Positions 5,801 through 64,000 of a stretch of 64,000 nt of DNA are shown piece after piece. The first letter of the stretch is position 1. Every line of letters begins with the position of its first letter. Source of the DNA: Lytechinus pictus. Taxonomy: Eukaryota. The DNA lies in the NCBI RefSeq assembly GCF_037042905.1, contig NC_087250.1, forward strand, positions 8,558,001 to 8,622,000, given 5' to 3'. Position numbers and translations under genes: made by a program. The notes under the pieces were generated by a model. That model was not told where the DNA came from. It ran no database searches and saw only the letters and a program-made list of their open reading frames with translations.

Positions 5801-8800
5801 CACCATATAATACCTACCAGGGCCCCGTTGTATAAGAAGTTACTATTACATTTGGAATTCTCTTCCCCGTAACATCAAACATATTTCATATCTAAATTCC
5901 TTAAAGTCCAAACTGAAAAACTTTCTTTTCAATCATTCAACATCCTAATTTAATTCATCCCTTAATATTTCCTTATCATCATATGTTTATTTTATCAGTA
6001 CAAGTCTTGAATGTCATATTTTACTGTCCATAGGGACTGCCTCGACAGAGCCTTTGTCTTGTTCTTTTGCAGCTTCCCATTTCATGTTCATTTTTATGCA
6101 TGTACTGTAAATAGCCTTGTACAATCTTAGCCCTATTCTTTTCTTTATTTTATCTTACTTGCATCTTACTATGTATCTTTGTTTCTTTTTTCTTAATGTG
6201 TTTTTGTTATTTTTTATATGCTCAATGTCTTTGAATGGACTTGAATAAATCAATAAAAGAAAAAAATGGTAACTTTGCCATCAATGGTAACTACCATGGT
6301 AACGATGATCTACAGCATGCCAGAATCAAGGATTCCATGCAAGTTACTATTGACAGAGTTGCTATAATGGTAACTCTCATGCAACGGGGCCCAGGCCTAT
6401 ACAGAATGTCATTGAGGCTATATTGATATATTTACGTAGATTTATGCATTAACTATCTACAGTAGATCGTAATACAGCATTATTTTCCTAAGAACAAAAA
6501 ACAAATAGAACAAAAAAGAAAAGGCAAGGGAAATGGGGTAAAAAATATATCAATTTCTGAATATTTTGTCAAATTCCAGCACATTGTACTTTTGTATTTA
6601 AATTTATTTATTTTTTGGCTTTTTAGAAATTTTGCCCTACATAACATATCTGACCCCCTTAAACTTTCTGGCTCATTACGTTACTGACTTGAAACTATAT
6701 AGTATGGCTCATAAACCAACGAACTTAGAGGGCAGTAACACATGCTGGGAGGAGAGACCACGGATCTGAATATTGTTTGGATGGGTTCTCTCATGTTGAT
6801 CTATTCAGAAATGGAGTCACCGATGCGGACCGGTCGCCATCAAGGGACCATCAACAAGACATCGGCTCTGCACGAAAAGGCATGGGCTTCCATCATATTT
6901 TTCACCAATACTAAAGAAATGTGAGGTTTTTCAATTTTATTTTGCGCTATAAACTTGTATTAGACTCTTCTTTTTTTTTGGTACTATTAAATCGTGATGA
7001 TAAGGAGAGAACCCCCCCCCCCCGGAAAACCAGTGTTTTTTGAAGGAGAGATAGTCCCGGGAGATAGTCCCATATGTTACCTTTTGTATGAGCGCAGTTA
7101 ATGTTTCACAGAGGATATACTACATAATTTATGTCACCTGGTGGGTGTTTCATAAAACTGTTCGTAAGTTACGAGCGACTTTAAGAACGACTGGTGATCC
7201 TTTCTTGTGGTAAATGATATATTCATTGTCGATGGTTTGGCACGTAAGAAAGGATCACCAGTTGTTTTTAAAGTCGCTCTTAACTTACGAACAGCTTTAT
7301 GAAACGGCCCCCATGCATGGCAAAAAGTCGCCAGGGATGAATTTTCAGTTCAATAGCCTTACTGAAATGAGTAATTCTCAGCTTTGAAATATTATAAAAC
7401 TTACTATACCATTACCAAGAGGAGAACGCTCACTACCATAGAATGTTACATGAGAAACCTTTTGAGAAAACAGGGATTAAAGTTAACAAGTCTATTAAAG
7501 GACATGTACCCTCACACAAAATTGTGCAAGGGTGACAAAAAATAAGATTAGATCTCATTAAAGTTTAGGGGGCTTTTAGTTTGTTCCAAAGTTGGGACAC
7601 TAATTAGGCAAATCCTATTACTTCTTAAGCTATCGATCCAAGGAGGTTTAAAATGAGACGACCGTGTGTTCAAAACGAGGGGGAAACGGGTTTGGTTTAC
7701 TCGAAAGAACAACGTAACCAAAATAAAGAAATTTGATTGAAAGAAACATAATTGGGTATTTATATCCCTAATTAATTATCAAATTAATCAATGCAAAACG
7801 ATAAAAAATAATACTAAGCTGTAAATCATGAAATTTGAAAAAAACGAAAACTTAGAGTAAAAGGGCCTAATAGTAAAATGATAACAATCACAATCATGTA
7901 GGGGCGTCGCAGTCTAGTGGTTAAGACTCTCGTCTTTCAATCCGAAGGTCGTGGGTTCAATTCCCAACCATGGCGTGCGTTCTTCAGCAAGAAATCCACC
8001 CACATTGTGCTGCACTCAACCCAGGTAAAATGAATGGGTACCCGGTAGGAAGAAATTCCTTGAATGCCAGAGCCCATTTCGGCTATAGCCGGGGTAATAA
8101 TAATAATTAAAAACATTATTGTATTGCGCAGTTGAGTATATACATATAGAAATTGCGCAATTATAATGTACAATTATTATTATTATAGTAATGAATATCA
8201 GAAATCATAATTGTATAAAAATAATTGTTCAATGCTGAGGTTTTATGCGGCGAATTCCCCGTAAAAATGACTATCCAGACCATGTAATCAATATAAAAAT
8301 CATTGTGCTTTCATCGTTGTAAAAATGAATCATAATAGTTAATAAAATAGCATAAAAATAATTGTCTTTTCATCGTTGTGAAAATGAATCATAATAGTTA
8401 ATAGAATAGCAAATGTTGTCCGAATTTAGGATTTTTACGAAAGGAACAAATTATTGAATAAAAATTGATATGATACATGATGAAAACGCAACAATCGGCC
8501 TTTTGTACATGAAGTTAAAACTGAATAATTATATGAACAAGGAAAAGACCATTTACAACTGGGACGTAAGGATATCTTCGCAAACACCAAAGTAAATAGA
8601 GGATTAAAAAAAAAAGCAAAAAGAAGAGGGAGGGAATAAATAATATCAAAGTGAAGAGCAGGGAAAACGAAAGAAGGGAGCAATTAAAGAACTCTAAAAA
8701 ATTAAAGATAGTAAAGAAGGTTCAAATAGGCTTTACAAAAAACTATTTAGGAAATAAAAAATAAGTGTAAAAGTGTAAATTGACTGCTGTTACTTAAAGC

Positions 8801-12300: not shown

Positions 12301-15300
12301 GAATATTTAAGATTGTTGTTGCTTGCTTTTCATAGTATTCTTGGATGAGCACCACAATGCAGTCTTTCATTTATCAATTACTACAGACGAAGCAGGTCTT
12401 TGCGCTCTTCCACTTCTGGCTTCCTTGTTATTCCAAAAGTTTCAAAAACTTGGGGGAAAGATCATTTGCTTCCTGAAGACATTAAAAAATGTTCCTCTGT
12501 CGAAACTGTCAAAAATCTTTTTTATTTAACTCTTAGCTTTTTATGCGCCTTGAGCACTCTACAGAGTGGATTCGGCGCTTTATAAGTCACATTATTATTA
12601 TTATTAACACGATTTGATTTACACGATTTTTTACCACGCGTCCAGAAAAATAAATGTGATGTCATCGCTTCAGTTATCTACACTGTTATAAAAATTCTAC
12701 TTAAAACCCCCCCAAAAAAATTCCTGCAGCAGAGTCTCAAGAACACCTGTTATCTTACTGCACTGTGTCATTTTACATGCATTTGTGTAAAATTAAAGAA
12801 AATTGGTATTTGGTGTATGTAACCTTACAGACTTATTGTAATAAAACTGTTTTCCCTTTTCTTAAACAGGCCCGTTCTGTGAAAGTGTAAAAAAATCTTT
12901 CCTGTTATAACAATTTACATAATGATTTCGTTATTTCTTTCTGTAAAATCTGTTTTTTTACTTTTCTTCTGTAAAGTTTTCTGTTTCTAACAGTGTATCA
13001 TTCGATATAAATTAGATAGAGCATGATATCCCTTTTTTCGACCTACCACTCTCGTTGATGAATACTTTCATACGCAGTATACCGGCCAAGCTCTGATGTT
13101 CCCCGTTTACCGGTATGGAGTCAGAAAATCCGGATCTTACATGATCCAACAGGTTCAAATAACCGATCCCACCTCGCCCGATATCGACCCAGTAGAAAAT
13201 ATCGTCGTATATCAGAATCTGTTCGACATATCCTAGCTCTATCGATATCGTTGTCACGATATTCCTCACGTGTTTCACGATATCGTACATCTCGATAGTG
13301 CGATCGTGGTTGATCCAAAACAGGTTCCCGTCTGCAAAAGTGTAAAGAAAAAAAAAAATCACAATTTAAATGATCCTAAACCTGAAGACACAGCCGAAAG
13401 GGCCAGAAGAAAGAAGGGCAAAGAGGCCGAAGGAAGTGGCAAAAATTATAATTTGACCAAAAATGATTACATTAACCGACTTCTACATTGTTAAATCTAT
13501 TGGGTAAAATTTTAACCAACACGAGGGTCATTATGTGTCCAACCAATTTGGGGCAATATTTCAACCAATGCGGGAAGCATGTTGTCCTGTAAGGTTAAAC
13601 AAATAAGCAGCATTTACTTTAGAATGGGCAATATTTTCATCACACTGGATAAATAAAAATGCCCCAAAGAAATTCCCAATGTTGGGTGGACACATAATTA
13701 CCCTTATGGAGCATTTTTGCCCAATATTTTTTGCAGTGTATTATTTTCTATGGTTACACTCTGTTTTCCCTAATGTCTTTAAAGGACAAGTCCACCCCAA
13801 CAAAAAGTTTGTTTTAATAAAAAGAGAAAAATCCACCAAGCATAACACTGAAAATTTCATCAAAATCGGATGTAAAATAAGAAAATTATGACTTTTTAAA
13901 GTTTAGCTTTATTTCACAAAACAGTTATATGTACATCCTGGTCGGTATGCAAATGAGGAGACTGATGACGTCATCCACTCACTTTTTTCTTTTGTATTTT
14001 ATTATATGAAATATTATAATTTTCTCTCCATTGTCAAGTAAAACAAGGATTAATTCCTCCCTGAACATGTGGAACTAGCCTTGTTTAGTGCTATTATGGT
14101 TCAGTCAAGTTGGACCTCATTGTCAAATCTGAAAAAAATGAAATATTGTTTAATTCAAACAATAAAAAACAAAAGAAATAGTGAGTGATGGACATCATCG
14201 ACTGACTCATTCGCATGTCACCGAGTTGTGCATATCACTGTTTTGTGAAAAATAAGCGAAACTTTAAAATGCCATAACTTTCTTATTTTACATCCGATTT
14301 TGATGAAATTTTCAGCGTTATGCTAGTTTGATTTTTTCTCTATTTATTCAAATATTGGGATGGACTTGACTTTTAAAGTGGTGAACACAAAAAAAAATTC
14401 AGAGGGAGGTAAGGGAAGAATGTAGAAAAAAGGAGAGAGGCGTGTGTAATCCCTGAGGCCTTTGCAAACATAATGACATAGGCAATCTTATCTCCCCCGG
14501 CCCTCTCCTTTCAAAATATACTTGTGCCATCCATGTCTGTTATTGACCTGTATTTTCGTTATTTTTTTTCCAGGAGGGTGTTCCACAAAAGGTCAAGTGT
14601 GAAAATGAGAGTCAAGCCAACGCGCACATGTCATTTAACGCGTTATCTGGTTGATTGATATGTATAGTGCGCGTCCCGTTCGCATTATCTGACCAATAAG
14701 GTGATGCCTTGTATATAGCGCAGGAAACTGAAATTGAAGTTCGACTCTACGTCACACTTAAATGTTTGTGAAACACTCCCTGATCTCCCTTTTTTTTCTC
14801 TGTGTTGCGTAGCCCCTTGCCCCCGTAGCACCGCCCCTTGATTCCACATAGTGATTAACAAACGTAGAGGGCGTCACGTCTTTGCCGTTGTTGCTTCCTT
14901 TTACGTCCGTTGATAGTGTTCTTACCCTGCGCGTTTCTTGTGAATGCAGTGACGTTTACAAGATCCTCATCGACAAGACTTTTTTTGCCAGTTCCATCCA
15001 CGTTCATTTGCATGATGCTATCCCCCTCGGAAAAATAGAGCATACTAGTAAAAAAAAGTAAGAAAAAAAAGGAAATGATTATCGTTACGCGTATTTTCGT
15101 GCAGGTATGTATGCCTTCGCCACAATATGTTTGCACGGAGAGGTCCGATTGCTACGTACAATGTACAAGTTAATTTCTTTTGGTTCCCGCTGGGAGAGGA
15201 GGGGCAGAGTCCTTAGTCTAAAAATGAACCTTGTAACCCTAACCACTAGCGTTCCTAAGAGGGGAGGGGCAGGGGGGCCAGACTGCCCCCCTGACGAGTC

Positions 15301-46684: not shown

Positions 46685-48083
46685 TTAAATTTAACAGTGT
46701 GAAGTTGATTTCACACTGTCTTCGAAACTGTGATAACATTGTGGACATTATATATACGTTTCCTGCAGGGTACAATCAAAGATTCGTTGTGTGCGATGGC
46801 TTTAATGTCTGTATATAAATAAAAAAAATAATAAAAAATACGTAGCCAATCTGCCACATGTCGCCAGCGATTCAAGGAATTTATTTTACCACTTTGTACT
46901 TCACCTGGGTAGAGTGCGGCAAGAATGCAAAGCATCTTGGCAAATGATGCTCGTGTTATTCGTATCATGGAACTTATGCTCTACAACCGAGCTGTTCAGT
47001 ATTTCAATGCTCACAATTCTAATATCATCAAATCAATAACAATTGCGACAATACAGTGAGAAGTAAAAACAAATATCTTAATCTATTGGGCATAAATATA
47101 TTAAAAACTGTACAAAATTATACATAACTATGTCCATTACTAAGTTTCCATGATACACTCAAGTGAAATAGCCCGTCCCAATCCAACCCAGTTCCCTTGA
47201 GTTCGGCCACGATTTCAGGCCACGATTTCAGCCATGCACAAATATCAATAAAAGAGATACTCTGTATTTTTGTATACAACATTCCAATACGTCCATGCCG
47301 GTCCGTCCAATGTTTCATAAAGACTTGGTATGATAATAGATGCGTAATTTCTGTTACGCGTTTTTTATCAGCCAATAAAATTGAATGATTTCAATAGCTT
47401 AAAACTGTTGATGCAATTTTTTGTGTGAAATCGGGTTTTAGTAAATAGGCACCAGGTTACTGACGTCACAATCCAACAATACACCGTCAGCGGTCCAAAG
47501 GAAATGCATTTAAAAGACATATCAATCAATACCACCATTCAGCGGATAGGAGAGATCATTTGCTGACTCAAGAATTGTGAAAAGGACTTGAAATCACGAA
47601 ATAAAATTACATCAGTGGAAGCAGCGAATTGGTTGTATCACTGAAAAATATTGTTCACCTCGATCGCGGAGCCTCTGGTTTTTTTCGGTGTGGAGAGTAA
47701 TGTTACTATATGATATAGGGATATGCATGGAATGTGTCGAAAATACAGGGGATTCGATTACGTCAGTTACGTTATACGACAGTTATTTATGGAATTCTTT
47801 TCACGTTTGATAAGCACCAGATTGGGATTTGATTTATCCTCAAAGCTGGGATGATATCACTTTCAAACTTTGCATTGCGCCACCTTTCGGGGAGAATGAA
47901 ATATGGCAAACTTGGGTGGTATGTGTGTGTTATTGATTTTTCTTTTACATAGTTGTATTGAATACTGGCATCTGTGACCGACATTGAACGTCATCCAAGC
48001 AGGGCTCGAACCCCAAAACTCTGCATCGATTTGGTTGTAGTTGCATGTCTTCTGATGATTCCGAATTTTATCGAAGAATGACT

Positions 48084-48283
48084 TTATGCGGCTTCATTGT
48101 TTTTTTCTTTTCTCTTGCATCTATAGCAGACGACTACGATGACGATGCTGGTGATGATGATTAAGAGAACGACTATGGTGATGATGATGATGATGTTCCT
48201 CGGCAGCTGCCATGTGATTGGGTCGTCGTAATTATCGGACACGTTGGTCTCAGTATCGTCGTCGTCATCCGTTTCCAAATCAA
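48084..48283 (-). CDS. Paralog B last coding exon: acidic stalk, TM, tail CYRCKRKEKNNEAA*
   Basis: cctcag| acceptor; homologous to the last exon of A. Confidence 0.88.
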
Positions 48284-51200
48284 CTGAGGTGAGTGAAATA
48301 TTTTTTGAGAAGAAACAAATGATAATATCTCATTGGTGGTGGTGATTAGAAAGAAATAGTGAGTTTTCGCAATTGCAACGGGGACGGACTCTACGACATA
48401 GTAGATCTATTAAAAAAGCCCCTAAGAGCTCCATGCACAGCTTAGAGGTCTTTGTCGAAAATTAGTGATCGGGACGGGTATTGTTCTGAGCTGAGAAAAA
48501 AATAGCAAATATGTCGTATGTCCGGAGTCATGGGCGACACTATTGATCTGATTTACCGATTTTCGACAAAGAATGCTTTGTCATGAACGGCTGTCGACAA
48601 TAGATGCTCTTCGTCCCAGAAAGCGTCTGCGTATAGTGGTTGCAAAAGCTCCCTAATGATTTCAGGGGCCGCGGTGAGGGTGTGTATGCATTGGCGGAAA
48701 TCACAGGGGGGACACGTCCTCCCTACCCAAAATAGTAGGGGGGACACAATATTAAATGTCCCCATACTATTTTTGGTCTTTTATGATGGAAAGAAATACA
48801 TCATTCAAAATCGAAATAAAACATGTATTTTGGACGAGATGACCTTACTTTTTGGGTGATAACCTTTTTTTGCTTGTCAAATTTTCCAGCACCTGGTCCC
48901 CCTACCTTTGGGGAGAGATTTCCGCCCTTGTGTGTATGTGTGTTAAGGGAGGGGGGGGGGTGGCCACTCAAAAGACACACAATCAAATGGTTATTTATAC
49001 GTTTTATACACGTTTATTGAAAATATCAATTTACCAAAATATTTGGATTTTAATTTTTTTATTTTTTTTATCTTCAACATTGTTGGCGAGTGAGTTACGG
49101 TTGTTTCCTTCACCTTTTACAGGTATTTGGGGGGAGAACTCACGGTAAACATGAAATATACAGGAAGTGAAATCGATTTTCCTTTTCTTAATCATTTCTG
49201 GCTTCCCATAGTTTTAGCACAGACTTGGTCCTATATACTCTGGCCGACGTAGATCCAGTTGATAATACGGGCAAAAGAATTCGGAGTAACACAAACTTAC
49301 CAGTTTCGCACAATATCCCTTCGATATCATCTGGGCAGAAGCACTGATTGTCCGTACATGTGCCATTATTTTGACAGGTAATTTCGGTACAGTCCACTAT
49401 GGATAAAGGGTTTATAAGACGAAAATGATGAAAAAAAATGGTAAAACTCAAATCTAAAATTGCTACAATTAATAAAAGTTTGAAGGAAGAAATGACAGAT
49501 TTCACAGAGAGGGGTAAGAGACATGTTAAAAGTTAGAAAACCGTATATGATGCAAATATTTTAAGTGCATGACGTCATGACTTTTCATGTTAGAAATATA
49601 TACAGAAATATTTTTTTCATATATATATGTACAAATCAAATTCAATTCCAATTTATTTACATTTTTGATAAAAAGGAAAGAGAATTAACAGAAACAATGA
49701 TAAAACAATGATAACAGCGTTGTCAAAACATAGCATGAACGTTGACCCAAAAGAACCAGAACACAGAATCGATATATTTTGTGAAAGACACCTATGACGA
49801 AACACGGATATTACCTTGGCACGTGAATCCGTCCCCAACTGTTATAAAACCAGTCCGACAGGTACAGTAGTATCCTCCTTTCGTGTTCACACATACGCCA
49901 TATTCCGGGTCACAAACAGAACTTTGGCATTCATTTATATCTTCACAGCGTTCATCTCCGGCTAGTGTGAACCCGCTGTCGCAGATGCATTTATAGATGC
50001 CGTTGGCCTCGATGCATTCGCCATTGTCACACTTCCGGCAGTTTGCGTGGACTTAGTGAGAAAGGGAGAAAGTGAGAGAGAGATAGAGGGGAAAGTGATT
50101 ATTAATAGATCATTAGAATAAACATTAATCAAATGCACCTTTTATCCCTTCTGTTAAAACAATTACAAACAATAAAAAGGGTAATTTAACACATGTTGAA
50201 GGCGTGAACAGTCTTTTCCAGGTAAGCCTAAAATTGAAAGAAAATGGACAACTAATAATCAATTTCATGGATAAATATTGCATGGATACACTCTTTTGAG
50301 GTTCTTATCTTTGCATAGTGCATTTGAAAGAAAGAAATATGTGTCATGATTTGAAACCAGTTTTGACGCACGTTTGCTCACTCCCTGCCCACTGTGCGAA
50401 GCAGAACAATAACTTTCTCCATAAATGTCATGAAACGTGTTTTCACCTATCAAAATATTTTGCATTATAAACGTGCAAATGATTTTTAATCAATGAAATG
50501 GAAGACGAGTAAAAAGGGTAACATACCTAAACACGTGACGCCATCAAATCCAAGAGCGTATTCCTCTTGACAGTCGCAGAGGGCTGATCCGTTGTTGTTA
50601 TGGCAGATACCACGCATCGCGTCGCACGGGTAGTCTTCACCGCGTAAACCACACGGATTCAATCCTGGTGGTTATATCAGTAAATAAAAAGCTCAAGAAG
50701 TGTTTATAAGCGTGCCTTATGAGGCGTTGCGAGAAACGTGCGATCAGTTGCAAGTCTATTTTAGGCCCTTAAATCATTAATTTATAAATTAATAATCAAC
50801 TGTTAATGACTTTGAATTCATTTGGTTTATTTCATTTCAATATTTACACTTTTAACATAAAAAAAAAAAAAATACAAATTAATCAAGCTTACACTTTTAA
50901 ATTGGTAACAACCCAAGTGGGGGGGGGGGCGCTTCCATTGACGAATGGATACCATGCGCGACCATGGGGTCTCGAAAAGCACCATAAACACGTATTTTCC
51001 ATCTTCTGAAAATGCACCCCTTAAAGGTCAAGTCCACCTCAGAAAAATGTTGATTTGAATCAATAGAGAAAAATCAGACAAGCACAATGCTGAAAATTTC
51101 ATCAAAATCGGATGTAAAACAAGAAAGTTATGACATTTCAAAGTTCGGCTTATTTTTAACAAAATAGTTATATGAAAGAGCCAGTTACAGTCAAATGAGA

Positions 51201-54200
51201 GAGTTGATGACGTCACTCACTCACTATTTCTTTTGTTTTTTATTGTTTGAATTATACAATATATCAATTTTTACGAATTTGACGATTAGGACCTCCTTGC
51301 CTGAAGCACAAAATATTAAAATAATGGAATTCCAAGTGTTCAGGGAGGAATGAAACTTCATTTCACATGACAATGATGAGAAAATACAAATATTTCATAT
51401 TTCATATAATAAAATACAAAAGAAATAGTGAGTGAGTGATGTCATCGACTCTCTCATTTGGATGTAACTGGCTCGTTCATATAACTATTTTGTTAAAAAT
51501 AAGCGGAAATTTGAAATGTCATAACTGTCTTATTTTACATCCGATTTTGATGAAATTTTCGGCATTGTGCTTGTCTGATTTTTCTCTTTTTATTCAAATC
51601 AAGTTTTTGTTTGGGTGGACTTGTCCTTTAACAAGTATCGGCGTGTAAAACCCTACCCTTAACAATTATTGGAAACAAAACGATACTCATGGCAATTATT
51701 CCCTGAATTGGACCCCTAAACAAGTACAGTGACATTTTAATCGGTCGTCGGTTTTACCTAATTTACCTACATCATTGGGTTTAGTACAGCCCAACCTCCC
51801 CACACCTCGCGCAAATCGTACTCTAAACACGTAGTGTTGACTCTCGGGGAAAAAAGTACATCCTTTATAAAACATTTTAGCCTCAATTTTTTTACCGTCG
51901 CAAATTTGACCCTAAACACGTAGCTTTCCTAGCGAAAATAGATACCCTTTTTTTCATTATCTCAGTGTTTTAAACACCCTTATTATGTTCCGTACGTAAC
52001 GTGCCCAATCTTGAAAAAAGACATAATTTTTTCGTGTTTTTTTTTTGGTCGCGCATGGTATCCACTCGTCAATGTAAGTGCCCCCCCCCCCCGGGTAACA
52101 ACAATACAAACAATATACAATAAACAAAAGTAATTGATAAATCAAAATCTTTTTAAACGTAATTAAAGTATATAAATAGTTGTCTATGTATGCCAAAAAA
52201 GAAAGAAAAGATATGAAAAAAAAGAGACCAGCTGAGAAGCGAGGCTTGTATTGTGATTGATTAAGGATCAAAGATTGTAATCTGGAGCCCATCTTACAAA
52301 GAGTTGTGATTGATCCAATCAATCGCAACTATGGAAAGCCAGCAAAGCCAACATATATAATGCATGTTTGCTCAAAAATTTCTCTACATATGAATGTATA
52401 TCCATAAAATAATTGATTACTTGACAATTTGGTGTGATCTTTGTTTGCCAAGGACATTTTGCAAATTTTCTGTACAAAAAATATGACACTGATATATTTC
52501 CCTAGGATTCTATACGATTGATTGGATCAACCGTAACTCTTTGTAAGACTGGGCCTTGATTTGCTCCAGCTAAAATTTAGTTATCACTTGTAGATTTGCA
52601 ACATAATATCTGGAGTTGATTGCTAATATTTAATATTTTTCTACGATTGATTCCATAGACTACATTGTACAATCAATCGTGAAAATCAAGCGTACTCCGT
52701 CCTGTGGAAGACCACTGAAAGACTTAAAATTGGTAAGGTCTTACAGCGGTCTTCAAGATCACTGAAATTTGTCATCTCTGTGGAATGGCTCAGAAGACCC
52801 CTCAAAGTACTTTGAAAGACTGATGGATATTTCTTGTCTTAGAGTTGTCCTATAGAGATCTTTTAATGGTCTTTCAGAGATCTTGTATACAACAAGTGAT
52901 CTTTCAGAATTCTTTCCATGGACTTTGCCTGGTCTTTCATTGATCTTGAATGATCTTTCAATGATCTCTCAAGAGTCTTATAGTGATCTCCGCAAAAATC
53001 TTGAGAGACTGCCGAAAGATCATTGAAAGACTATTAAGACCATTGAAAGTTCATCGAAAGACCACTGAAAGACTGCTGAAAGATCACTTAAAGACCATTT
53101 TCCTGTCAGACCGTTGTAAGACTGTTTGGAACCGTTTCAAACAGTTTTGGAGCCAATGAAGACCACGAAGACCACTGAAAGATTAGTCAGGACTCGTGTA
53201 AGACCTCAAAGACCATTGTAGGTTTATTGAGAGACCTCTGAAAGATCAACCAGAATTCATGGTCTTTCAAAGGTCTTTCAGCGGTCTTGTTCTCTGTGGA
53301 ATAACCTTTGTGTTAAGAGACCAGATCTGGCCCGTTGCAGAAAGAGTTGCAATGAAGCGCAACTTGATTTTCAACCAATCAACAGCGCGCATTTGGGACT
53401 TGTGATTGATTTTTTGACTTGCGTTTAAACGCAACTCCTTCTGCAACGGACCCCTGAATCTTTGTGAAACGCCCCCTTTCCCGATCAAATCAGATCATAT
53501 CAAATCACACTTAAAAGTGAAGTAAAATCATGCCTATTACAACACATCAGCATCAAATATTTGAATCAGATAAAATCACATAAACCCATTAAACCAAAAT
53601 CTCATAAAATTAAATCGAATCTCATCAAGATTACAAATGCTTGCTCTTACCACCGCTATTTAATGATGTTGTATTTCTCCCGGCCAGTGGCGTAGACAGG
53701 TTCGTACACCTGGGGGGGATGACTGGGCTGCCAACGCTAGTGAGGGCGCGAAGCGCCCGAGCGAGGGAGCGAAGTGACCGAGCGGGGGGAGGGTATGGGA
53801 GGGGGGTGTCCCCCCTCCCACGGTAGGGAGCTTTTGCAATTTTGAACTTGAAATCGTGCAATCTGATGCATACTTAATGAGGTAAAATAACACACACAAG
53901 CGCGCACGCACACACACACATAATCACACACACACACACACACCCTCACACACACACACACACACACCCGTGCGCGCACCACACACATACTACGCCTTGA
54001 ATGGACAGACATACATCGACAAGATCTACACACCGTGGCATATGAATACAGAATGGACTGACACATAGTATTGCATATTGAACCACACTACGTATTTATT
54101 TATCTCTGTGAATTTTGCTGTTACACCTCTTCAGAAAAAAACCAATGTCAACTGTGTACACGCAGGTATAGTCTTTGTTGTCTTGATATGGGTATGTGGT

Positions 54201-57200
54201 TATGAATGAAAACAGCCTCTGTGGCCATTTGTGAATAGAACACATAAACAACAAACAAATAACAATATGTCTGTTCATTATAAAGCATAATGAATACGTA
54301 CATACTATGCTTTTTTTTTTACCTCAAAGAAACAGGCATAGTATCCATAGATGGATATTGGCTGCCGGCTCATTAACATACAGATACAAAAAACATAAAA
54401 ACGGTATCACTATGATCCATGGAGTAACAATACTGCTTTGTAAGTTTGTGAAGAAATCGGAACCATAACGGCTAATAACAATAAACACAATTACAATAAT
54501 GAGGATTATTATTATCATCATCATAATTATTATTATTATTAATATTATAATCGTTATCATTATTATTATTACTATTATTATCATCATTATGACTTATTAA
54601 GTAACCAAATATCATTCCCCAAAACCTGGGGGGGGATGATTGTACATGCCATCCCCCCCACCTTGTGAGGTGGGGGGGATGCATCCCCCTCATCCCCCCC
54701 GTTGTCTACGCCCCTGCTCCCGGCATTGTTGCTGTCGGTGCTGTTGCCGGTGTTGTTGTTGCTTGTGTTGTTGGCTACGCAGTTGTATTCGAATCTGCCA
54801 CTAACACAGATGAGACCCTCTTGGCATGGAGATGAGCTGCAGTAGTTGACTGCCACATAAGCAGATAAGAAAGACATTTTCAAATGAGGACATTACCAAT
54901 AACATGTAGTATTAGCCTTTATTCATATAGACGAGCTCCAGTAGCCGACTGCCACACAAGCAGATAGGAAAGACATTTTCAAATGAGGGCGTGGCCAATA
55001 ACATGTAGTATTAGCTTTTATTCATAGACGAGCTGCAGTAGTTGACTGCCACATGAGTAGATAAGAAAGACATTTTCAAATGAGGACATGACCAAATAAC
55101 ATGTAGTATTAGCTTTTATTCATATCAAAATTCAGAGATATCAAAGATGCGAGAACAGGAGCATCGGGGAAAAAACTAACTTAATACATGCAGTGACCTA
55201 CGTAAGTCTTATGGGGAAAGACTGACTTAATACATGCAGTGACCTACGTAAGTCTTATGGGGGAAAGACGGACTTAATACATGCAGTGACTTGCCTAAGA
55301 CTTGCGTAAGTCTTATGGGGAAATACTGACTTAATACATGCAGTGACCTACGTAAGTCTTATTAGGGAAAGACGGACTTAATACATGCAGTGACTTGCCT
55401 ACGACTTGCGTAAGTCTTATGGGGAAAGACTGACTTAATACATGCAGTGACTTACGTAAGTCTTATTGGGGAAAGACGGACTTAATACATGCAGTGACTT
55501 GCCTACGACTTGCGTAAGTCTTATCGGGGAAAGACTGACTTATTAAATGCAGTGACTTGCTTAAGACTTACGTAAGTCTTATGGGGAAAGACTGACTTAT
55601 TACATGCAGTGACTTGCTTAAGACTTACGTAAGTCTTATGGGGAAAGACTGACTTAATACATGCAGTGACTTACGTAAGTCTTATGGGGAAAGACTGACT
55701 TAATGCATGCAGTGACTTGCCTAAGACTTGCGTAAGTCTTATGGAGAAAGACTGACTAAATGCATGCAGTGACTTGCGTAAGACTTACGTAAGTCTTATG
55801 GGGAAAGACTGACTTAATACATGCAGTGACTTGCCTAAGACTTGCGTAAGTCTTATGGGGAAAGACTGACTTAACACATGCAGTGACTTGCGTAGGTCTT
55901 ATGCGGAAAGACTGACTTAATATATGCAGTGACTTACGTAAGACTTAGGCCTACGTAAGTCTTTTGTGATAAACAAACGTAATTTCCGTTTATAGGCGAC
56001 TTTAACGGACATGTTCACAACTTTACCTTTAGTTTGGGCGATTCTGGATTCTTATTCTTTGTTACTCATTATTAAGATTTAATGTACGCAAAGACAGGGA
56101 TACCATTTTGGAATTCGCAGAGATAAATTAAGTATATCAACGATAGAAAAATGTAAGACAAATCTTTGAGTTCGACCTACCATGTTCGTCAATAAACACT
56201 TTCATATCCAGTATCCCCGCCAAACTTTGCTCGGTCCCACTCACTGTGATGTTTGTACGGAAGTCTTGATTGGTGGGATCGTTCAGGTGTAGATGGCCAA
56301 TCCCGCCTCGTTTATTATCTGCCCAGTAAATGATATAATTATAAACGACTATGTGCTCAGCGTAACCGATTAATATCGATATATTGGCGAGGGCGGTACG
56401 CACGTTGGTTTCCAAATTGTACCTCTCGACTGTTTGGCCACCGTTGATCCAGTATAGACAGTTATCTACAAGGAATAGAAGAAAAACAACACAACAATAT
56501 TGTCACTCTTTCTTGAAATTGAAATCTATTTCGGGAAATGGGGTAGGCTATGCCAACTGTTCAAAACCAATGGTAGGAGAAAAAAATCATGGTGTTTTAG
56601 AAATGACCTCGTGTTAGCCGATCGTGTTTAATGTGGAATTGATTCGTTTATTGTACAATAATATGAAAACTGGAAAGGAGCGATCCATATGATGTAGGCA
56701 CATCAATTAGCATTAAAAAGTTAAGAATCCTGAGAGAAATTTAGCACGACGTGGCCATTACACCATCCCCATAAAGCGCTCTTAATTTTTTTTTTTTAAC
56801 TCATGCGCTATTACATGTTTCTTTCCAATCTTCCTCCTCGTCTTTCATCTTTCTTCTTTGTGTGTAGATTTGATCATACTGTTCCTGTTCTTCTCGTTCT
56901 TCTTTTCCTCTTCTTCCTTTCTTTTTCCTTATTGGATTTGCTCTCAGAAAATGTAAAACAGTAGAGTTGTGCAAAACATGCAAACGAGGAAACGTCTACA
57001 AGGTGAACTTCAATGTTAGACTGATCGACTCATGTTGTCGCAAAATACAACCTTTCGTGTACTAGTAAACACTATCCTGTTTTCAGGAAACTGCCATAAA
57101 TGGAACTAACCAGGGGGCCGTTTCATAAAGCTGTTCGTAAGTTAAGACCGACTTTAAAAACGACTGGTTATACTTTCTTACGCGCTCAACCATCGCCAAT

Positions 57201-60200
57201 GAATATACCATTAACCATAAGAAAGGATCACCAGTCGCTCTTAAAGTCGCTCTTAACTTACGGAGAGCTTTATGAACCACCCACCAGTCCAATATGTGAC
57301 TTTCTCACGAAAGGTGGGGTAACGCGTTTACACGATCCGACGCGACTACCCGATGTTTTGAGACAAGCCCGTCCACCGACTCTTACCTTGGGCGTTTCTT
57401 GTGAAAGCAGTAACATTGACCAGGTCCGTATCAACAATGACCTCTTTATCTGTACCATCCACCTTTATTTCCATGATGCGATCTCCCTCAGAAAAATAGA
57501 GCTTTCTAGTCATAGACACATGGATGAAGAATGAAAAATGTACTCTTTCAGGGTGACCCATTCCCTTCCGGTATGACTTAAAAAAATAAAACTCGTTCAT
57601 ATATTGGTACCTCAACATTTTATCTTTACATCTTTATTTAGGATAAAAGAGCAATATTGATTAAATGCATGGCTCAGGGGCATAGGTGCCGTGGCCGGGG
57701 ATTGAACCTCAAACTTTCGCTTGTCTATGCAGGTCTATAGGCAGTTTATAATCACTCGCGTCGTGTGCGGGTTCGTAATCACTCGCGTTTTGAATTTTTG
57801 GCGATTTTTTTTTTATTTCGGTGCGATTTTTTTAAAACGGTGTCTTCAATGGGACAGACATGCAGGGAAAATAAAATGAAATTGAAATTCGAGTTTCGTT
57901 TTAAGCCGGCAATTAAGTGCCTTAAAATGAAATGTACTCGACTACTGTTTTAACATAACAAACAAGCAAATCAGCCATGTGGCTCAACTAACTTAGAATA
58001 GATCGGGACTTCTACTGTGTCTTATACGAGGACTCCGAGTCGGAACTTGCCATATCTGCCACACCGATATTACATCGTATCATTCCCATATGCGGACATG
58101 CCTGCATGCAATGGCCCCAAGGCGGCCGGACCCGGCCGCGGTCGGACACGACGTGCATCGGTAGCATGGAGCAAGCTAACGTGAGTCGAGCTGAGTTAGA
58201 TCCCACGTTATATATGAGGCGCCGATTGTACCAATATTATATAGAACAATTATTTGTTATATAATCATTATTCATTAAATAATAAAGCAATATTGACTGA
58301 CCTCGGGGCGATACGACATATATCGTCCAAACTAGATTTATATCGCCCGAGTCGTAGACGAGGGTGATATCAATTTAGTGAGGGCGATATGTCCTTTCGC
58401 CCCCAGGCCAGTCAATATTGCTATTATTAACCAAATCAGACATCTAGAGCAAAAATCGTTAAAATTTATATATTTTAAATTTTTAGAATGAGAATCTAGT
58501 TTATCAAGTTGAGCAGACTGGGCCTCTGAACTTTACCATTGTGACGTAATTGAAATGATGCGTCCCTGGCCTAGGGACGCAGTATCCATTATTATGACGT
58601 ATAGCACTGCGCGGTTCAAGGACGCGTGCAAAAACGCGTAGAATACCCGGATATTAGCGCTGCCTTTTATTGCCCGCTACATTTCCACGCATTTTCTCAT
58701 TCACTTTCCTGAGCGGGCAATAAATTGGGCCCGTGGATAAACAATTGGAATTTTATTGACCGGCCATTTGATCCCAGTCTTAAGCAGGCAACAATGTTTC
58801 AAAGTTGCCCTGCTCAGATGTCTGATACGTTTAATAATAACTATTATCACCCGTATCAGACATCTGAGCTGGTCATTTACAAAACCGCATTTCCCTGTAT
58901 TTTATTATTATCAGGAAGGGATAGGTATATTGTTTGTATTTTCCTCGGTTTCTATGCGCGTATTGACTTTGCATGCAGAGACGACGCAAAATATACCTTT
59001 GTATTTTCCCTGGTCTCACATCCGGGCCTTTGAGGATGCGAATGAAGTGATACGCTTCATAATGTTCCGCGCACCAACGATCTACGTCATAATAAAGACA
59101 ACGCTGGATCTGGGCGCTTGCAAGTACGTCATAATGGTAAAGAGCAGAGCCTAGACACTGATATTATCATGACACAACAGAACTCTATTCTTAAAAGATA
59201 TCACTGTTATCATGATTTTTGCTTTAGATATCTGATTTGGATGATAATAAAAATATTGACTGCCCTTCTTTCGGGGAACATCAAATATATTGCCCTTAAA
59301 AGACCCATATTGCCCTCGTCTAAAAACTCGGGCCAATATGATTCTTTTGCTGGCAATATATTTGATGTTCCCCTCAAGACCAGTAAATATTATATAAATA
59401 TTTATATATAATTTACATTTTATTTGTAAATAATTACTATTATATAAAATAACATTTCTAATTATTTATATATAATTCCAAGTAATTGTAAAATGTAAAT
59501 AATAATAGTTCGACATTCCATTATTTATAAATAATGATTATTTGTTTTTCATTATCTATAAATAATAATTTTTGTGTTTCATTATTTATAAATAATGACA
59601 CTGCATACTTCATTATTTATGAATAATTGCAATTCGTTTTTTTTATTATTTATAAATAAGTTTGTCGAGTTTTCTATTATTTATAAATGATAATTATCTA
59701 TTAACAATGCCAGTGCACATTTGTTTATTTATAAATAATTTGTTGAGTTTCCCAATATTTATAAATAATGAAAATTCATCGTGTTTCATTATTTACAAAT
59801 AACATTTTTGTTTGAATATCCCATTATTTATAAATAATCATTATTTATAAACAATAGAATGTCGAACTATTATTATTTACAAATAATGAAGTATTACTTG
59901 GAATTATATATAAATAATTAGAAATGTTATTTTATATAATAGTAATTATTTACAAATAGAATGTAAATTATATATAAATAATAGTTATTATCTAATGAAT
60001 AATGATTATGTAACAAATAATTGTTCTATATAATATTGGTACAATCGGCGCCTCATATGTAACGTGGGATCTAACTCAGCTCGACTCACGTTAGCTTGCT
60101 CCATGCTACCGATGCACGTCGTGTCCGACCGCGGCCGTGTCCGGCCGCCTTGGGGCCATTGCATGCAGGCATGTCCGCATATGGGAATGATACGATGTAA

Positions 60201-62745
60201 TATCGGTGTGGCAGATATGGCAAGTTCCGACTCGGAGTCCTCGTATAAGACACAGTAGAAGTCCGGATCTATTCTAAGTTAGTTGAGCCACATGGCTGAT
60301 TTGCTTGTTTGTTATGTTAAAACAGTAGTCGAGTACATCTTATTTAAGGCACTTGCCGGCTTAAAACGAAACTCGAATTTCAATTTCATTTTATTTTCCC
60401 AGCGTGTTTGTCCCATTGAAGACACCGTTAGAAAAAAAATCGCACCGAAATGAAAAAAAAAATCGCCAAAAATAAAAAACGCGTGTGATTACCAACGCGA
60501 CGCGAGTGATTACGAACGCGAGTGAATATAATAAGCCGGTCTATAGGCGTCTTAAACCACTCGGCCATGGTTCCTACATGGAATTCTCATACAGAACAGT
60601 GGGTGCAACGAGCCAAAGTACATCAGGAGGGCTAAAGATATTCGTTCGACCCAACCCATTCACATTTTTTAAATTTGATATTGCTGATTGACAAAAATGT
60701 ATGAATTATGATTCCAAATCTAACACTGATTCTAGAAATGGTAATTACTGAACTTCCTTTGCCCAAATTGGGAAGATATATCAATGATTTGGAACTATTT
60801 TTTGACTGGCGGAAGAATTGGGGCTATTTTACTGTTCCAGTTGATGAATTTGATCCCATCATAGTTATCTTCATAAATGGTGATTTATTTTAAAAATGAG
60901 CTGGCTATGATACCCTTCTCTGGTCAGATATGGAATGTCAGATATATATCCTATCCAAAGGTAGTAAACATTCGACCCTCTAATTTCACAATTATTTTTT
61001 ATGAATTTTTCTTAAGTGCCATTTTAACACACAAGTCTATAGGGAATGTTTTACGCGCGTGACACCAGTGGTAATTCTCTGCGATCAGTGTCATTTCGCC
61101 ATCTACGACACACACTGGAGATGATGTCACTAGTTTATTGGCGACAAAGTACTCACTGGGCAGCGGAATAGTTAATCTTAATTGTAAAAAAGTATTGATT
61201 AGCGATTGGTTTATTACGGCAAACAGCTTTAAATAAAGGTTGGTGGTTCCTTGCTTGATTTATTTTCACCCTTTAAAAATGAGTTAAAAAAGAATAACAA
61301 AATAAACAGTCTAAACTTTCAAAAAACTGTAACATGTGATCATTGACCACCTTCCTCTCTCTCTCTCTCTATTTCTCTTCTGTATGATCAATAACAGTAG
61401 CTGATGTTATACGTGGGCGGCTCCAATTCATTTTAATAGGAAGCGGCAAGATATAAGCTATTTTTTACTCAATTGAATTAGGCTTCCATGGGTAACAGAG
61501 ATTTACATGACCTATACCTCTCTTTCTCTATACGATTCGTTATCCCTGTAAATCCTCTTTCTCGGGTTTATTTCACTGATTTAAACATATAAGGGGTGGG
61601 GCGCTCACTCTGCCCCCTCCCGATAGCTAAAATAAATATAAGTATATTGTTAGGATACTGAATAACCATAACAACAGACATATATATTACTCACCCTTTC
61701 TGACCGTCCGCGCTTAGTCCATATATATGCCTATCATTGTAGTCGATCCTTATCTTATTAGTCCCATCTAGTCTGATTGATGCCAAGATTCTTGAGACGT
61801 TTCCAAACCAGTAGATCCTTCGGTCAAAATTGTTGAAGGTGATGCAGAAAGGCTCTGGAAAAATAAAGAACCGAAGTGAACTCGGTTATTTCAAAGATGG
61901 AGCGAACTGATCAACACTTTGCGGTCGTTTTCACTGACAGCCAGTCTTAAAATATACATATATTTTGAGTTTTAAAAATAAAAAAGAAAAAAGATCAGCC
62001 CGTTTTGTAGAGACACTAACATATTTTTGAAAGAAAATGTACATGCTTTGCTACGCTAAATTTCAAACATAATTTTAAAAGTTTAATGAGAAATTTTCAA
62101 AATTCATTGCTCATGTTTTTTTTTGTTCAATTTCAAAATATTTGCTTATATTGTCTTTAAACACAATATGAACAATCGTTAGTTCATATTAAACCAGGTT
62201 GTATGAGATGTCTAACGGGTTGTTTATTTCTTATTCTGTACTGTGTAAATATAAAATAATTGCGTTTCTAGAATAGATCCCTGAGGGACTCCTCATATAT
62301 ACCTGTACAAAGGCCAAAACATCTGAGTTTGTGAAATTGTTGTGTAAAAATATGGGAATTAAATATTCAACGGTTGCTAGAAAAAGTGCTCGACTGGGAA
62401 TATTATGTAAATCAATAATTTCGACCATTTCCTTTCATCCGCACTTACACACGCAATTCAATTTTAACATGTTTAAAGGAACTGGGGAATATTACTTACT
62501 AACACCCGGAATGATGACAACCTTGTTTGGCACACCGTCCAGAACATCGCCTCCAATTTTATGCGGGGACCGCTGTCCCCATACCACCATATTTGTCACG
62601 ATGTCATAGGTCATGACCCCTGGTCGGTGGATAAATTCGAAGAACGCCCTCTGATGCAGCTGATCGGTCAGGAGCATTCCCGGTTCTATATCACTGTGGT
62701 ATATTCCGAAATTGATCTGGTCCACAAAGAAGACCTTGTCCGCGG
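48084..62745 (-). CDS. Paralog B (5'-partial, spliced): YWTD-like propeller + 5 EGF-like modules + stalk + TM + short tail; one exon is TE-interrupted
   Basis: Exons 62500-62745, 61695-61854, 57387-57505, 56181-56465, [54717-54849 + 53651-53676], 50527-50664, 49815-50051, 49301-49396 and 48084-48283. Lengths 246/160/119/285/138/237 are identical to paralog A. Confidence 0.85.
48689..48930. mobile_element. hAT-type MITE
   Basis: CATTGGCGGAAATC...GATTTCCGCCCTTG termini; 8-bp TSD TGTGTATG; related copy at about 40008-40312. Confidence 0.8.
49301..49396 (-). CDS. Paralog B-specific short EGF exon (96 nt)
   Basis: ccatag| and |gtaagt boundaries; VDCTEITCQNNGTCTDNQCFCPDDIEGILCET has 6 Cys; phase 1-1. 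Confidence 0.85.
49815..50051 (-). CDS. Paralog B EGF + cbEGF exon (237 nt)
   Basis: actaag| and |gtaata boundaries; HANCRKCDNGEC...DINECQSSVCDPEYGVCVNTKGGYYCTC. Confidence 0.9.
50527..50664 (-). CDS. Paralog B EGF exon (138 nt)
   Basis: caccag| and |gtatgt boundaries; LNPCGLRGEDYPCDAMRGICHNNNGSALCDCQEEYALGFDGVTCL. Confidence 0.9.
50912..52095. mobile_element. Same MITE family, inverted copy with a nested TTAA element
   Basis: Reverse complement of the 28238-28791 sequence, split at TTAA; flanks GGTAACAAC; a related partial copy starts at about 63784. Confidence 0.8.
51025..51627. mobile_element. Kolobok-type non-autonomous element (TTAA TSD, AGG...CCT termini)
   Basis: Host sequence GCACCCC-TTAA-CAAGTAT is interrupted with TTAA duplicated; long TIRs AGGTCAAGTCCAC / GTGGACTTGTCCT. 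Confidence 0.8.
52708..53289. mobile_element. Palindromic element built from AAGACCACTGAAAGA subrepeats
   Basis: Subrepeat arrays in opposite orientation in the two halves. Confidence 0.55.
53651..54849 (-). pseudogene. Paralog B 4-Cys EGF/linker exon interrupted by a transposon (pieces 54717-54849 and 53651-53676)
   Basis: Removing 53685-54716 and one TSD copy restores a 159-nt phase 1-1 exon: VNYCSSSPCQEGLICVSGRFEYNCVANNTSNNNTGNSTDSNNAGRNTTSLNSG|gtaaga. Confidence 0.85.
53685..54716. mobile_element. Non-autonomous hAT-type element (1032 bp) inside a coding exon
   Basis: TIRs CAGTGGCGTAGACA / TGTCTACGCCCCTG; perfect 8-bp TSD CTCCCGGC (53677-53684 and 54717-54724). Confidence 0.9.
54830..55125. 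repeat. Three copies of a 97-99-bp tandem repeat spanning an intron/exon junction
   Basis: Units start at 54830, 54929 and 55026. Confidence 0.9.
55166..55963. repeat. Minisatellite, 15 units of about 46 or 57 bp
   Basis: GGGGAAAGACTGACTTAATACATGCAGTGAC[TTGCCTAAGAC]TTACGTAAGTCTTAT. Confidence 0.9.
56181..56465 (-). CDS. Paralog B propeller exon (285 nt)
   Basis: ttgtag| and |gtaggt boundaries; CLYWIN...IIYWAD...QSLAGILDMKVFIDEH. Confidence 0.9.
57387..57505 (-). CDS. Paralog B propeller exon (119 nt)
   Basis: gactag| and |gtaaga boundaries; KLYFSEGDRIMEIKVDGTDKEVIVDTDLVNVTAFTRNAQ. Confidence 0.9.
57740..60537. mobile_element. Foldback-type element with about 700-bp inverted arms
   Basis: Arms are near-identical (the same 64-aa pseudo-ORF appears on both strands); 8-bp TSD GGTCTATA (57732-57739 and 60538-60545); AT-rich repeat core. 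Confidence 0.85.
58283..59397. mobile_element. About 1.1-kb element with hairpin-forming ends, nested in the foldback arm
   Basis: Absent from the opposite arm; terminal hairpins at about 58287-58421 and 59252-59391. Confidence 0.7.
61695..61854 (-). CDS. Paralog B propeller exon (160 nt)
   Basis: ttccag| and |gtgagt boundaries; PFCITFNNFDRRIYWFGNVSRILASIRLDGTNK (missed by the ORF track). Confidence 0.9.
62500..62745 (-). CDS. Paralog B propeller exon (246 nt)
   Basis: cggcag| and |gtaagt boundaries; ADKVFFVDQINFGIYHS...GVPNKVVIIPGV. Confidence 0.9.
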
Positions 62746-64000
62746 CTGCCGAAAAAACATAAATAAATAAATAAATAGATAAAATAAGCGTGACCAAATA
62801 TATGAAGTAACATAAAACTAATGATAATTGATTCCAGGACAATTGTTCCGCTTTAAATTTCACACACCAATCGAATTACTGATTTTAAGCCTGCGTGGAT
62901 TTAACACTAAACCCTCCTTAAACCTAACCCTAAATCTAACATAGAACCTATTGCAACCCTTACACTACATCCTATATAGACAAAATAAAGCCAGCGGCAA
63001 TTGTCGCAGGAGCAAATGTCATGACACCTCATAGTCCAGTGCAATTCTTATCACCCGACTGGCAAACATTTTGAAGAATTCTTCTGGTGTAACATTGGGT
63101 TCCAGGACATTTGCTCCGGCGACTATTGATCAGCTCTTAATTCCATACACTAATGGAACGGCCAACTTCAACCCTGGGTTTAACACCGTATCCTTCCCTA
63201 ACACTGTAACCTACCCTACACCTATACCCTATACCAAACGTAAAATCCTATTGCAACAATTCCATAACCTTTACCCTTTATCCAGGGACAGACCCAGGAT
63301 TTTTCAAAGGGGGGGGGGGGGCACATTTTTCCCAAGGAAAAATTTGACAAGCCCCCCCCCCAAAGTCTTCAATTTCAAAAGGGGGTGCACATTTTAGTTT
63401 TAATGCCATTTTTACTGTTTTACATTATACATTTTTATTTTGCTTTTCAAGGGGGGGGGGGGGGCACGGGCCGGCTGTGACCTCCCTCCCGCCTCCTGGA
63501 TCCAACAGTCCCGACCTTTCGTTTGAGGACGCACACGCTTATTTACGACGGTAGTTGATTTTGGAAGAGACTTTTTGGGCCCGTCATCATGGTCGTAAAA
63601 TTCTGTCCTGCAATGCAAATTGTGTGACATGATATTTTTTTGTCGTTTCGCATCTGCGACGGAAACATTCAATATGCGTTTCGTGTGCAAAATTCTGGTT
63701 GCTACTATGGTAACAGCGATTTATCCGATTTAGGACGACTTTCCAAATCCACTTTTGGTTCCTCCCAGAGCTCGAGAAGCCGCCCGGGGGCCCACTCCCA
63801 TTGAAAAGTGGATACCAGGCGCGACCATACGTAAAAAGGGAAAGAGTGGGTAAGTACGTTACGTATAGGCATATGTAGCATTATAAGGGTGTCAAAAACG
63901 ATGATTAAAATACTGAAAAACGGGATATATTTCCAATACTTGTAGGGTGTCACAACCCAAATACTTAAGAGATGCATTTTCATAATCTGGAAAAGACTTA

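Follow-up and report, generated by a model that had tools for sequence, protein, structure and literature searches.

What becomes of a gene when a young DNA transposon has entered one of its coding exons and a near-identical gene stands intact beside it? This question is raised by a 64-kb stretch of the genome of the sea urchin Lytechinus pictus (C6:8558001-8622000, 64,000 nucleotides (nt); hereafter the window, with positions counted from its first letter). The locus carries three tandem minus-strand paralogs, here called A, B and C, of which B lies in the middle. A 1032-bp element at 53685-54716 splits the minus-strand coding exon 6 of gene B. The insertion is probably recent and unfixed, with the allele that bears it null or weak. 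Searches of the organism's own genome covered 812 Mb in 368 contigs.

The insertion in exon 6 and its transposon family

The element is flanked by a perfect 8-bp target-site duplication, CTCCCGGC (left copy 53677-53684, right copy 54717-54724), a sequence with just two occurrences across the 64-kb window when both strands are checked. Its ends are terminal inverted repeats of 14 nt, CAGTGGCGTAGACA on the left (53685-53698) and, on the right (54703-54716), a repeat whose reverse complement is CAGGGGCGTAGACA; the two are identical at 13 of 14 positions. Two microsatellites are found within the element, one (CA)n-rich (53890-53980) and one (ATT/ATC)n-rich (54473-54594). No strand is assigned to the element, its repeats, its microsatellites or the duplications. 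No further copies of the element are present in the window or the adjoining 40 kb.

As assembled, exon 6 is 1199 nt long (53651-54849, minus strand). It is bordered by an AG acceptor (GTGGCAG/TCAAC, 54849) and a GT donor (GGTG/GTAAGA, 53651; slashes mark the borders), both of which agree with the joints of paralog C transcripts aligned to B. Once the element and one copy of the duplication are removed, the exon is 159 nt long, has phase 1-1 and contains a single open frame. It encodes NYCSSSPCQEGLICVSGRFEYNCVANNTSNNNTGNSTDSNNAGRNTTSLNSG, a four-cysteine epidermal growth factor (EGF)-like module and an Asn/Thr-rich linker with five N-x-S/T sequons. The insertion point is codon 331 (Arg), in the linker. 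Read-through after ...NNAG adds 43 element-encoded residues (SRGVD...LLNKS) and then meets the first in-frame stop, 129 nt into the element (54587-54589, minus strand), for a predicted product of 373 amino acids (aa). The sole minus-strand AATAAA in the element is located 487 nt downstream of this stop (54095-54100).

An earlier note on this DNA, written from the sequence letters, had described much of this arrangement, and its description stands. The note reported a 1032-bp element with terminal inverted repeats and a perfect 8-bp duplication splitting the exon, a 43-residue read-through stopping at 54587 (the stop codon is 54589-54587), a minus-strand AATAAA at 54095-54100 (the only such hexamer in the element), an exon of phase 1-1 and a gene B whose other exons are open. 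All nine of the other coding exons are indeed open and match the public protein model of this gene, P0003 (611 aa).

The own-genome search for the element gave 1803 candidate places. Forty of these were scored, and 40/40 match at 86-100% identity. Ten loci were retrieved, nine of them full-length (this copy among them) and with identical ends. All nine full-length copies are flanked by perfect 8-bp duplications, every one with a different sequence; the tenth locus, L008, is 5'-truncated and has no duplication. The ends of hAT elements are short (about 10-25 bp), imperfect inverted repeats starting C/T-A-G. In this small sample, position 7 of the duplication is A in 8/9 copies and position 2 is T in 5/9. 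Hermes, a hAT element, makes 8-bp duplications and has a target preference of 5'-nTnnnnAn-3' (PMC10368747), which these letters may fit. In the target used at the present locus, CTCCCGGC, position 2 is T while position 7 is G.

None of the six element open reading frames tested matches a Pfam family, and the element can therefore be classified as non-autonomous. A genome search with PF05699 (Dimer_Tnp_hAT) gave 62 matches, from which 30 loci were retrieved. In three of these 30 (L040, L042 and L046, each on its own contig), a stretch aligns with ~190 bp at the start of the element. The alignment takes in the end CAGGGGCGGATCC..., its offset from the domain is constant in all three loci, and the domain is found ~340-460 bp inside. 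The terminal repeat of these loci diverges from that of the element after CAGGGGCG. Judged by these alignments, the three loci belong to a related family and are not a proven autonomous partner; a partner with identical ends was not found among the Dimer_Tnp_hAT loci examined. The hAT-type assignment made in the earlier note is accepted on the strength of the 8-bp duplications in 9/9 copies, the CAG... ends and the terminal homology to Dimer_Tnp_hAT-encoding elements, with the reservation that this homology is to related loci only.

For dating, the nine full-length copies were aligned over 799 sites, with two microsatellite stretches left out. The present copy departs from the nine-copy majority at 5/799 sites (0.63%) and the mean pairwise difference among the nine is 1.23%, but these copies are those most like the query, so that the divergence is biased downwards. 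On these figures the family is young. A literature search on Lytechinus pictus transposons found nothing specific. When other annotated proteins were searched for the peptide encoded by the element, six candidates contained three matches, all of them unnamed open reading frames of other copies of the element, and there is thus no sign of widespread exonisation.

A separate observation concerns the DNA contigs of a relative (set X20). Aligned to the element, these reach a depth of ~6,400-6,600 at its ends (53508-53831 and 54480-54803) and of only 12-130 in its interior (53832-54479). The end sequences seem to be abundant in the sister species and the interior of the 1032-bp family rare there, which is consistent with a recent expansion in Lytechinus pictus.

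A probable empty allele and possible fates of the insertion

Public protein models can be assigned to two of the three paralogs: P0003 corresponds to B exon for exon, and P0002 (562 aa) to C exon for exon. A further model, P0001 (XP_054757735.1, 562 aa), comes from another annotation of the same species and is present in nr only. Its exon 6 is intact (...NNAGRNTTSLNSG). P0001 is 97% identical to P0003, has the signal peptide of B and is B-type throughout; within exon 6 it has the residues of B wherever B and C differ, and no insertion. Neither P0001 nor P0008 (also nr only) is encoded anywhere in this genome at 100%. The simplest reading of these comparisons is that P0001 represents a second allele of B, from another assembly, without the element. 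Because this B-type protein has the exon intact, the insertion is probably not fixed, and a recent, unfixed allele is the most likely status. The phrase used in the earlier note, "recent, possibly polymorphic", fits both the 5/799 differences from the majority and the intact exon of P0001. A second haplotype copy of B was not found in the assembly, where the flank 54717-55400 matches only itself and C. At the homologous place, paralog C has a single copy of CTCCCGGC and so presents the empty site.

By manual count, P0003 has ~9 residues that are private with respect to the five other homologues in alignment A1, such as YNDVIYW>YNYIIYW (propeller blade) and IYEC>IYKC (EGF module); P0001 has ~4. 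The private changes of P0003 could be due to chance or to relaxed constraint on the insertion-bearing allele.

Contig sets X1 and X2, raw RNA reads (X21) and the relative's DNA contigs (X20) were aligned to 48000-57700 at a likeness of at least 90%, a threshold at which transcripts of C could align to B. Spliced contigs in X1 and X2 have CT..AC joints at 48283>49301, 49396>49815, 50051>50527, 54849>56181 and 56465>57387, and these sets therefore represent spliced RNA. At 15/19 diagnostic places among those listed, the spliced contigs carry the letters of C. They come from C and not from B; C is transcribed, and the exon borders are confirmed. It follows that this RNA says nothing about the fate of the B insertion allele. 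Paralog C went unnoticed in the earlier note, and it confounds the junction test suggested there. A joint at 50665>54717, which runs through 22 letters with a single copy of the duplication, was considered as a transcript of an empty B allele and rejected: the 22 letters are those of C, which lacks an ATG triplet. The share of words is 0.68 for X1 vs 0.48 for X2-X4, a weak hint of B-type RNA. Window-type letters in X1 account for ~37 of a depth of 187 at 56322-56337 and ~38 of 125 at 50004, and do not reach exon 6. None of the X20 contigs among the pieces listed spans the insertion site.

A course of events for the insertion allele can be proposed. A young, non-autonomous hAT-type transposon inserted by cut-and-paste into exon 6 of B, duplicating CTCCCGGC. 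The unprocessed mRNA would have a stop 129 nt into the element; as this premature stop lies upstream of four exon junctions, the mRNA should be degraded, and most of it would be lost to nonsense-mediated decay, the default fate of a read-through mRNA with a premature stop. The allele would thereby, more likely than not, be null or weak. A minority of transcripts might escape this fate if most of the element were removed or the symmetric 159-nt exon were skipped. Redundancy can make the loss of a gene tolerable, and insertions into linkers can also be tolerated. Loss of B would be tolerated because C is intact and transcribed, with exons 92-99.5% identical to those of B. The earlier note had listed a null allele, a soluble ectodomain polyadenylated within the element and in-frame skipping of the exon. 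Nonsense-mediated decay was absent from that list, as was in-frame removal of most of the element, which makes a fourth outcome. Decay, a null or weak allele, rescue, skipping and truncation can coexist.

Several points weigh against a recent, unfixed and null or weak allele. In addition to the downward bias of the dating, P0001 is a prediction, and the same protein would result if its pipeline had bridged a filled site exactly. P0003 keeps the reading frame across the element, so that the allele may be functional if this model is backed by RNA. The B-type letters in X1 indicate that B may be expressed in some animals. No read or contig from the insertion allele crosses either element junction, and the insertion consequently has the assembly as its sole witness. 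Given the perfect hallmarks of transposition, there is only a slight chance that it is an assembly artefact.

At the very place of the insertion, P0003 gains 49 residues that no other of the six homologues compared has: 40 are from the right end of the element (to ...NDIWL) and nine from its left end (CTNLSTPLA...). Residues 287-369 of P0003 match 54850-54602 at 100%. The sole removal that gives P0003 is an 893-nt stretch at 53710-54602 (minus strand), with ends AC..AG, or the same stretch one base further on, with ends CT..GG; both are non-canonical. The best canonical alternative is a predicted 896-nt GT..AG interval at 53710-54605 (minus strand; TG/GTTACT ... CCCCCCCAG/G), which is in frame and stop-free and would add 48 aa. 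Among the 66 GT/GC..AG pairs that keep the frame and meet no stop, this interval ranks first. It shares the acceptor of the P0003 gap, and its donor is 3 nt upstream. The gap in P0003 may stem from RNA reads, from an allele shortened by internal deletion in the animals that supplied RNA, or from the pipeline itself.

If the gap is real, most of the element would be removed from the pre-mRNA and B would yield a full-length membrane protein with 48-49 extra linker residues, either through cryptic spliceosomal sites (GT at 54605, AG at 53711-53710) or through spliceosome-independent excision of the SOS type. Such a rescue is unlikely to be the usual fate of the allele, and the evidence on it is divided. 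P0003 is a model of this locus, otherwise 100% identical to the B exons, and requires the removal of 54602-53710; a canonical GT..AG pair with the same acceptor preserves the frame. The insertion is located in a low-complexity linker, and PMC12779559 reports SOS rescue only at poorly conserved sites, with junctions that are rarely GU-AG and are found in or near the inverted repeats. In a predicted minimum-free-energy fold of the interrupted exon, the element ends pair in two helices, one of 9 bp formed by the repeats and one of 11 bp formed by a G-run, with the 3' junction between the two; this is a lead at most. However, the 5' junction is 114 nt inside the element and away from the repeat, and the terminal repeats are only 14 nt long vs the 54 nt reported for Tc1 (PMC12779559). 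The canonical donor, TG/GTTACT, is weak (5/8 consensus positions), P0003 may be a pipeline construct, and no joint at these places was seen among the 15 joints listed, with 872 further joints beyond them.

A more specific version of this rescue is that the 893-nt AC..AG gap reflects real mRNAs cut by an SOS-like, spliceosome-independent repair guided by the inverted repeats, after which 49 residues would stay behind in frame within a linker that tolerates them. Such a proposal is speculative and distinctly improbable. If true, it would mean that SOS splicing also occurs in echinoderms and acts on hAT elements whose terminal repeats are very short, here at an insertion that segregates naturally.

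Exon skipping is also doubtful, and clearly so. Here the 1199-nt exon would go unrecognised and exon 5 would be joined to exon 7 (56181>50664), in frame and with the loss of 53 residues (the EGF-like module and linker). Very long internal exons are often skipped, and the exon structure would allow it, the exon being 159 nt long and of phase 1-1 and its neighbours multiples of three (285, 138, 237 and 96 nt). Against this, no 56181>50664 joint is present among the 15 listed (872 further joints lie beyond), at a very low depth of B-type RNA, and in proteins of the low-density lipoprotein (LDL)-receptor type the propeller usually cannot fold without the module that follows it.

It is very unlikely that B is instead a decaying duplicate or pseudogene in which the insertion is fixed, with P0001 coming from a bridged model or a different locus. 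The private residues of P0003 (~9 vs ~4 in P0001) and the introns of B, swollen by repeats (exons 2-10 span 14.7 kb vs 8.7 kb in C), would suit such decay. The nine other exons, however, are open with intact splice borders, the element is young, and P0001 is B-type throughout and encoded exactly by none of the only three paralogs in the genome.

Most improbable of these fates is a secreted decoy, in which polyadenylation inside the element would let the mRNA escape decay and yield a soluble 373-aa propeller and EGF protein with a 43-residue element tail: the stop at 54589-54587 and the single AATAAA 487 nt downstream (54100-54095) are in suitable order, but one hexamer in AT-rich DNA is weak evidence, no 3' ends inside the element are present among those listed in the aligned runs, at very low depth, and the protein collections searched hold no such product (the three matches being the unnamed frames of other copies).

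Gene B, its paralogs and neighbouring repeats

Without the insertion, B encodes a 562-aa type I membrane protein, as do A and C. The protein consists of a signal peptide, a six-bladed YWTD propeller, a short EGF-like module, the linker, predicted to be N-glycosylated, a run of three to four modules of the EGF or calcium-binding EGF type, an acidic stalk, a transmembrane helix and a tail of 14 residues. Searched against solved structures, a profile made from positions 53-259 of alignment A1 matches the propellers of LRP6, LRP4 and nidogen (E-values: 9e-15 to 6e-6), and the Pfam families EGF_CA and cEGF are above cut-off. These matches agree with the propeller and EGF ectodomain proposed in the earlier note. 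Pfam's own YWTD model gave no match at E<=0.01, and searches of Pfam with single exons were also without a propeller match. NCBI names relatives in Lytechinus pictus and L. variegatus "pro-epidermal growth factor-like" and "low-density lipoprotein receptor-related protein 1-like".

All coding exons of B are on the minus strand. Exon 1, with the start codon and signal peptide (MESFFFIIFLCICSYS), is located ~8 kb past the window end (window-equivalent 72055-72102). The propeller starts in exon 2 (62501-62752) and continues through exons 3 (61694-61855) and 4 (57387-57504) to exon 5 (56181-56465), which encodes its last blades. Downstream of exon 6, exon 7 (50527-50664) encodes an EGF module, exon 8 (49815-50051) an EGF and a calcium-binding EGF module, exon 9 (49301-49396) an EGF module, and exon 10 (48087-48283) the acidic stalk, transmembrane helix, 14-residue tail and stop. 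The nine exons other than exon 6 have intact splice borders and are 100% identical to P0003 save at alignment edges.

Paralog A is located in the window at about 2.6-26.5 kb and is 45-76% identical to B per exon; its equivalent exon is intact and likewise represents an empty site. Paralog C, the closest to B, lies beyond the window on the minus strand (C6:8637778-8648400; window-equivalent 79778-90400; loci L016-L019 and L013), and its introns are much more compact, as reflected in the shorter span of exons 2-10. The signal-peptide exon of B resembles that of A and not that of C. No fourth paralog was found in the own-genome search, which gave just A, B and C.

Several other repeats are present at the locus. 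Around the acceptor of exon 6, a ~99-bp tandem repeat (54825-55122; three copies, 86-94% identity) places further copies of the acceptor, together with ~25 nt from the start of the exon, in the intron upstream, and each copy keeps a CAG/ acceptor-like end. This region matches paralog C in overlapping, shifted pieces, which suggests that the repeat is present there too. Farther upstream in the same intron, 55365-55950 is a tandem array with repeated open frames (VTACIKSVFPHKTYVSLKQ...) and shifted self-matches. The intron downstream of exon 6 contains a ~610-bp, very high-copy repeat (51020-51631; contig depth ~1e5), with copies also at 13781-14377 and at window-equivalent 88622-89239 and 94584-95176 (introns of A and C included). 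The RNA reads of X21 have a joint that skips 607 nt at this repeat (104 + 182 reads), and in each of the four runs loose ends are found at both of its borders. The repeat may be another mobile element, an insertion polymorphism or a palindromic element. In the intron between exons 3 and 4 of B, two near-identical 90-codon open frames (57992-58264, plus strand; 60006-60278, minus strand) are inverted and ~2 kb apart. These are probably the long inverted ends of another transposon.

Comparison with known systems

The event is an ordinary gene-breaking transposon insertion of a known kind, and the element is a new non-autonomous member of the hAT group. Exonic insertions buffered by a near-identical tandem paralog are to be expected in a transposon-rich, highly polymorphic sea-urchin genome, and this one has little wider biological weight. 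It does have practical uses. The public 611-aa protein model contains 49 transposon-derived residues across a non-canonical gap, and RNA tests at the locus must tell B from C, whose exons are 92-99.5% identical. Lytechinus pictus can be bred in the laboratory, and this naturally occurring allele is also a possible test case for the removal of transposons from mRNA by cryptic splicing, exon skipping or SOS splicing.

With non-autonomous elements of the hAT superfamily (Hermes, hobo, Ac/Ds), the element has in common the 8-bp duplication, short imperfect ends starting with CAG, the lack of a transposase of its own and ends related to those of Dimer_Tnp_hAT-encoding elements in the same genome; its family's target pattern may also be close to nTnnnnAn. 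It differs in that no autonomous partner with identical ends was found among the loci examined, the related transposase-encoding family having the end CAGGGGCGGATCC, and in the G at position 7 of its own target. Like a miniature inverted-repeat transposable element (MITE), it is high-copy (1803 candidates) and non-coding, but at 1032 bp vs the usual <~800 bp it is too long for one, and "non-autonomous hAT element" is the better name. It also differs from introner-like elements, which can be removed exactly at canonical sites. Here, exact removal of the element with one copy of the duplication has GT-AG, GC-AG or AT-AC ends at 0/9 offsets, and the element is therefore not introner-like.

In C. 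elegans and in human cells, DNA transposons located in exons are excised from mRNA by SOS splicing (Zhao et al. 2025, PMC12779559). Its sites are in or near the paired inverted repeats and rarely GU-AG, some of its products are in frame, and the process depends on AKAP17A, CAAP1 and RTCB. The present case resembles it in being an exonic DNA transposon whose ends are predicted to pair in RNA. The removal that P0003 requires is likewise not GU-AG; one of its borders is 25 nt from the element end, and the residues left over stand in frame where the protein is poorly conserved. The differences are that the element here is a hAT with 14-nt repeats and not a Tc1/mariner element with 54-nt repeats, that the other border is 114 nt inside the element, and that the removal is suggested by a gene model.

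The other close likeness is to maize, where Ds insertions in exons were reportedly found by Wessler and colleagues in 1987 to be partly spliced from pre-mRNA, the spliced RNAs having been sequenced. In both cases a non-autonomous hAT-type element is found in a coding exon, and splicing at cryptic sites in or close to the element ends could take out the greater part, with a few in-frame residues left. In maize the spliced RNAs themselves were sequenced, whereas in Lytechinus pictus the comparison is with the P0003 gene model, whose ends are not GT..AG, and with predicted sites.

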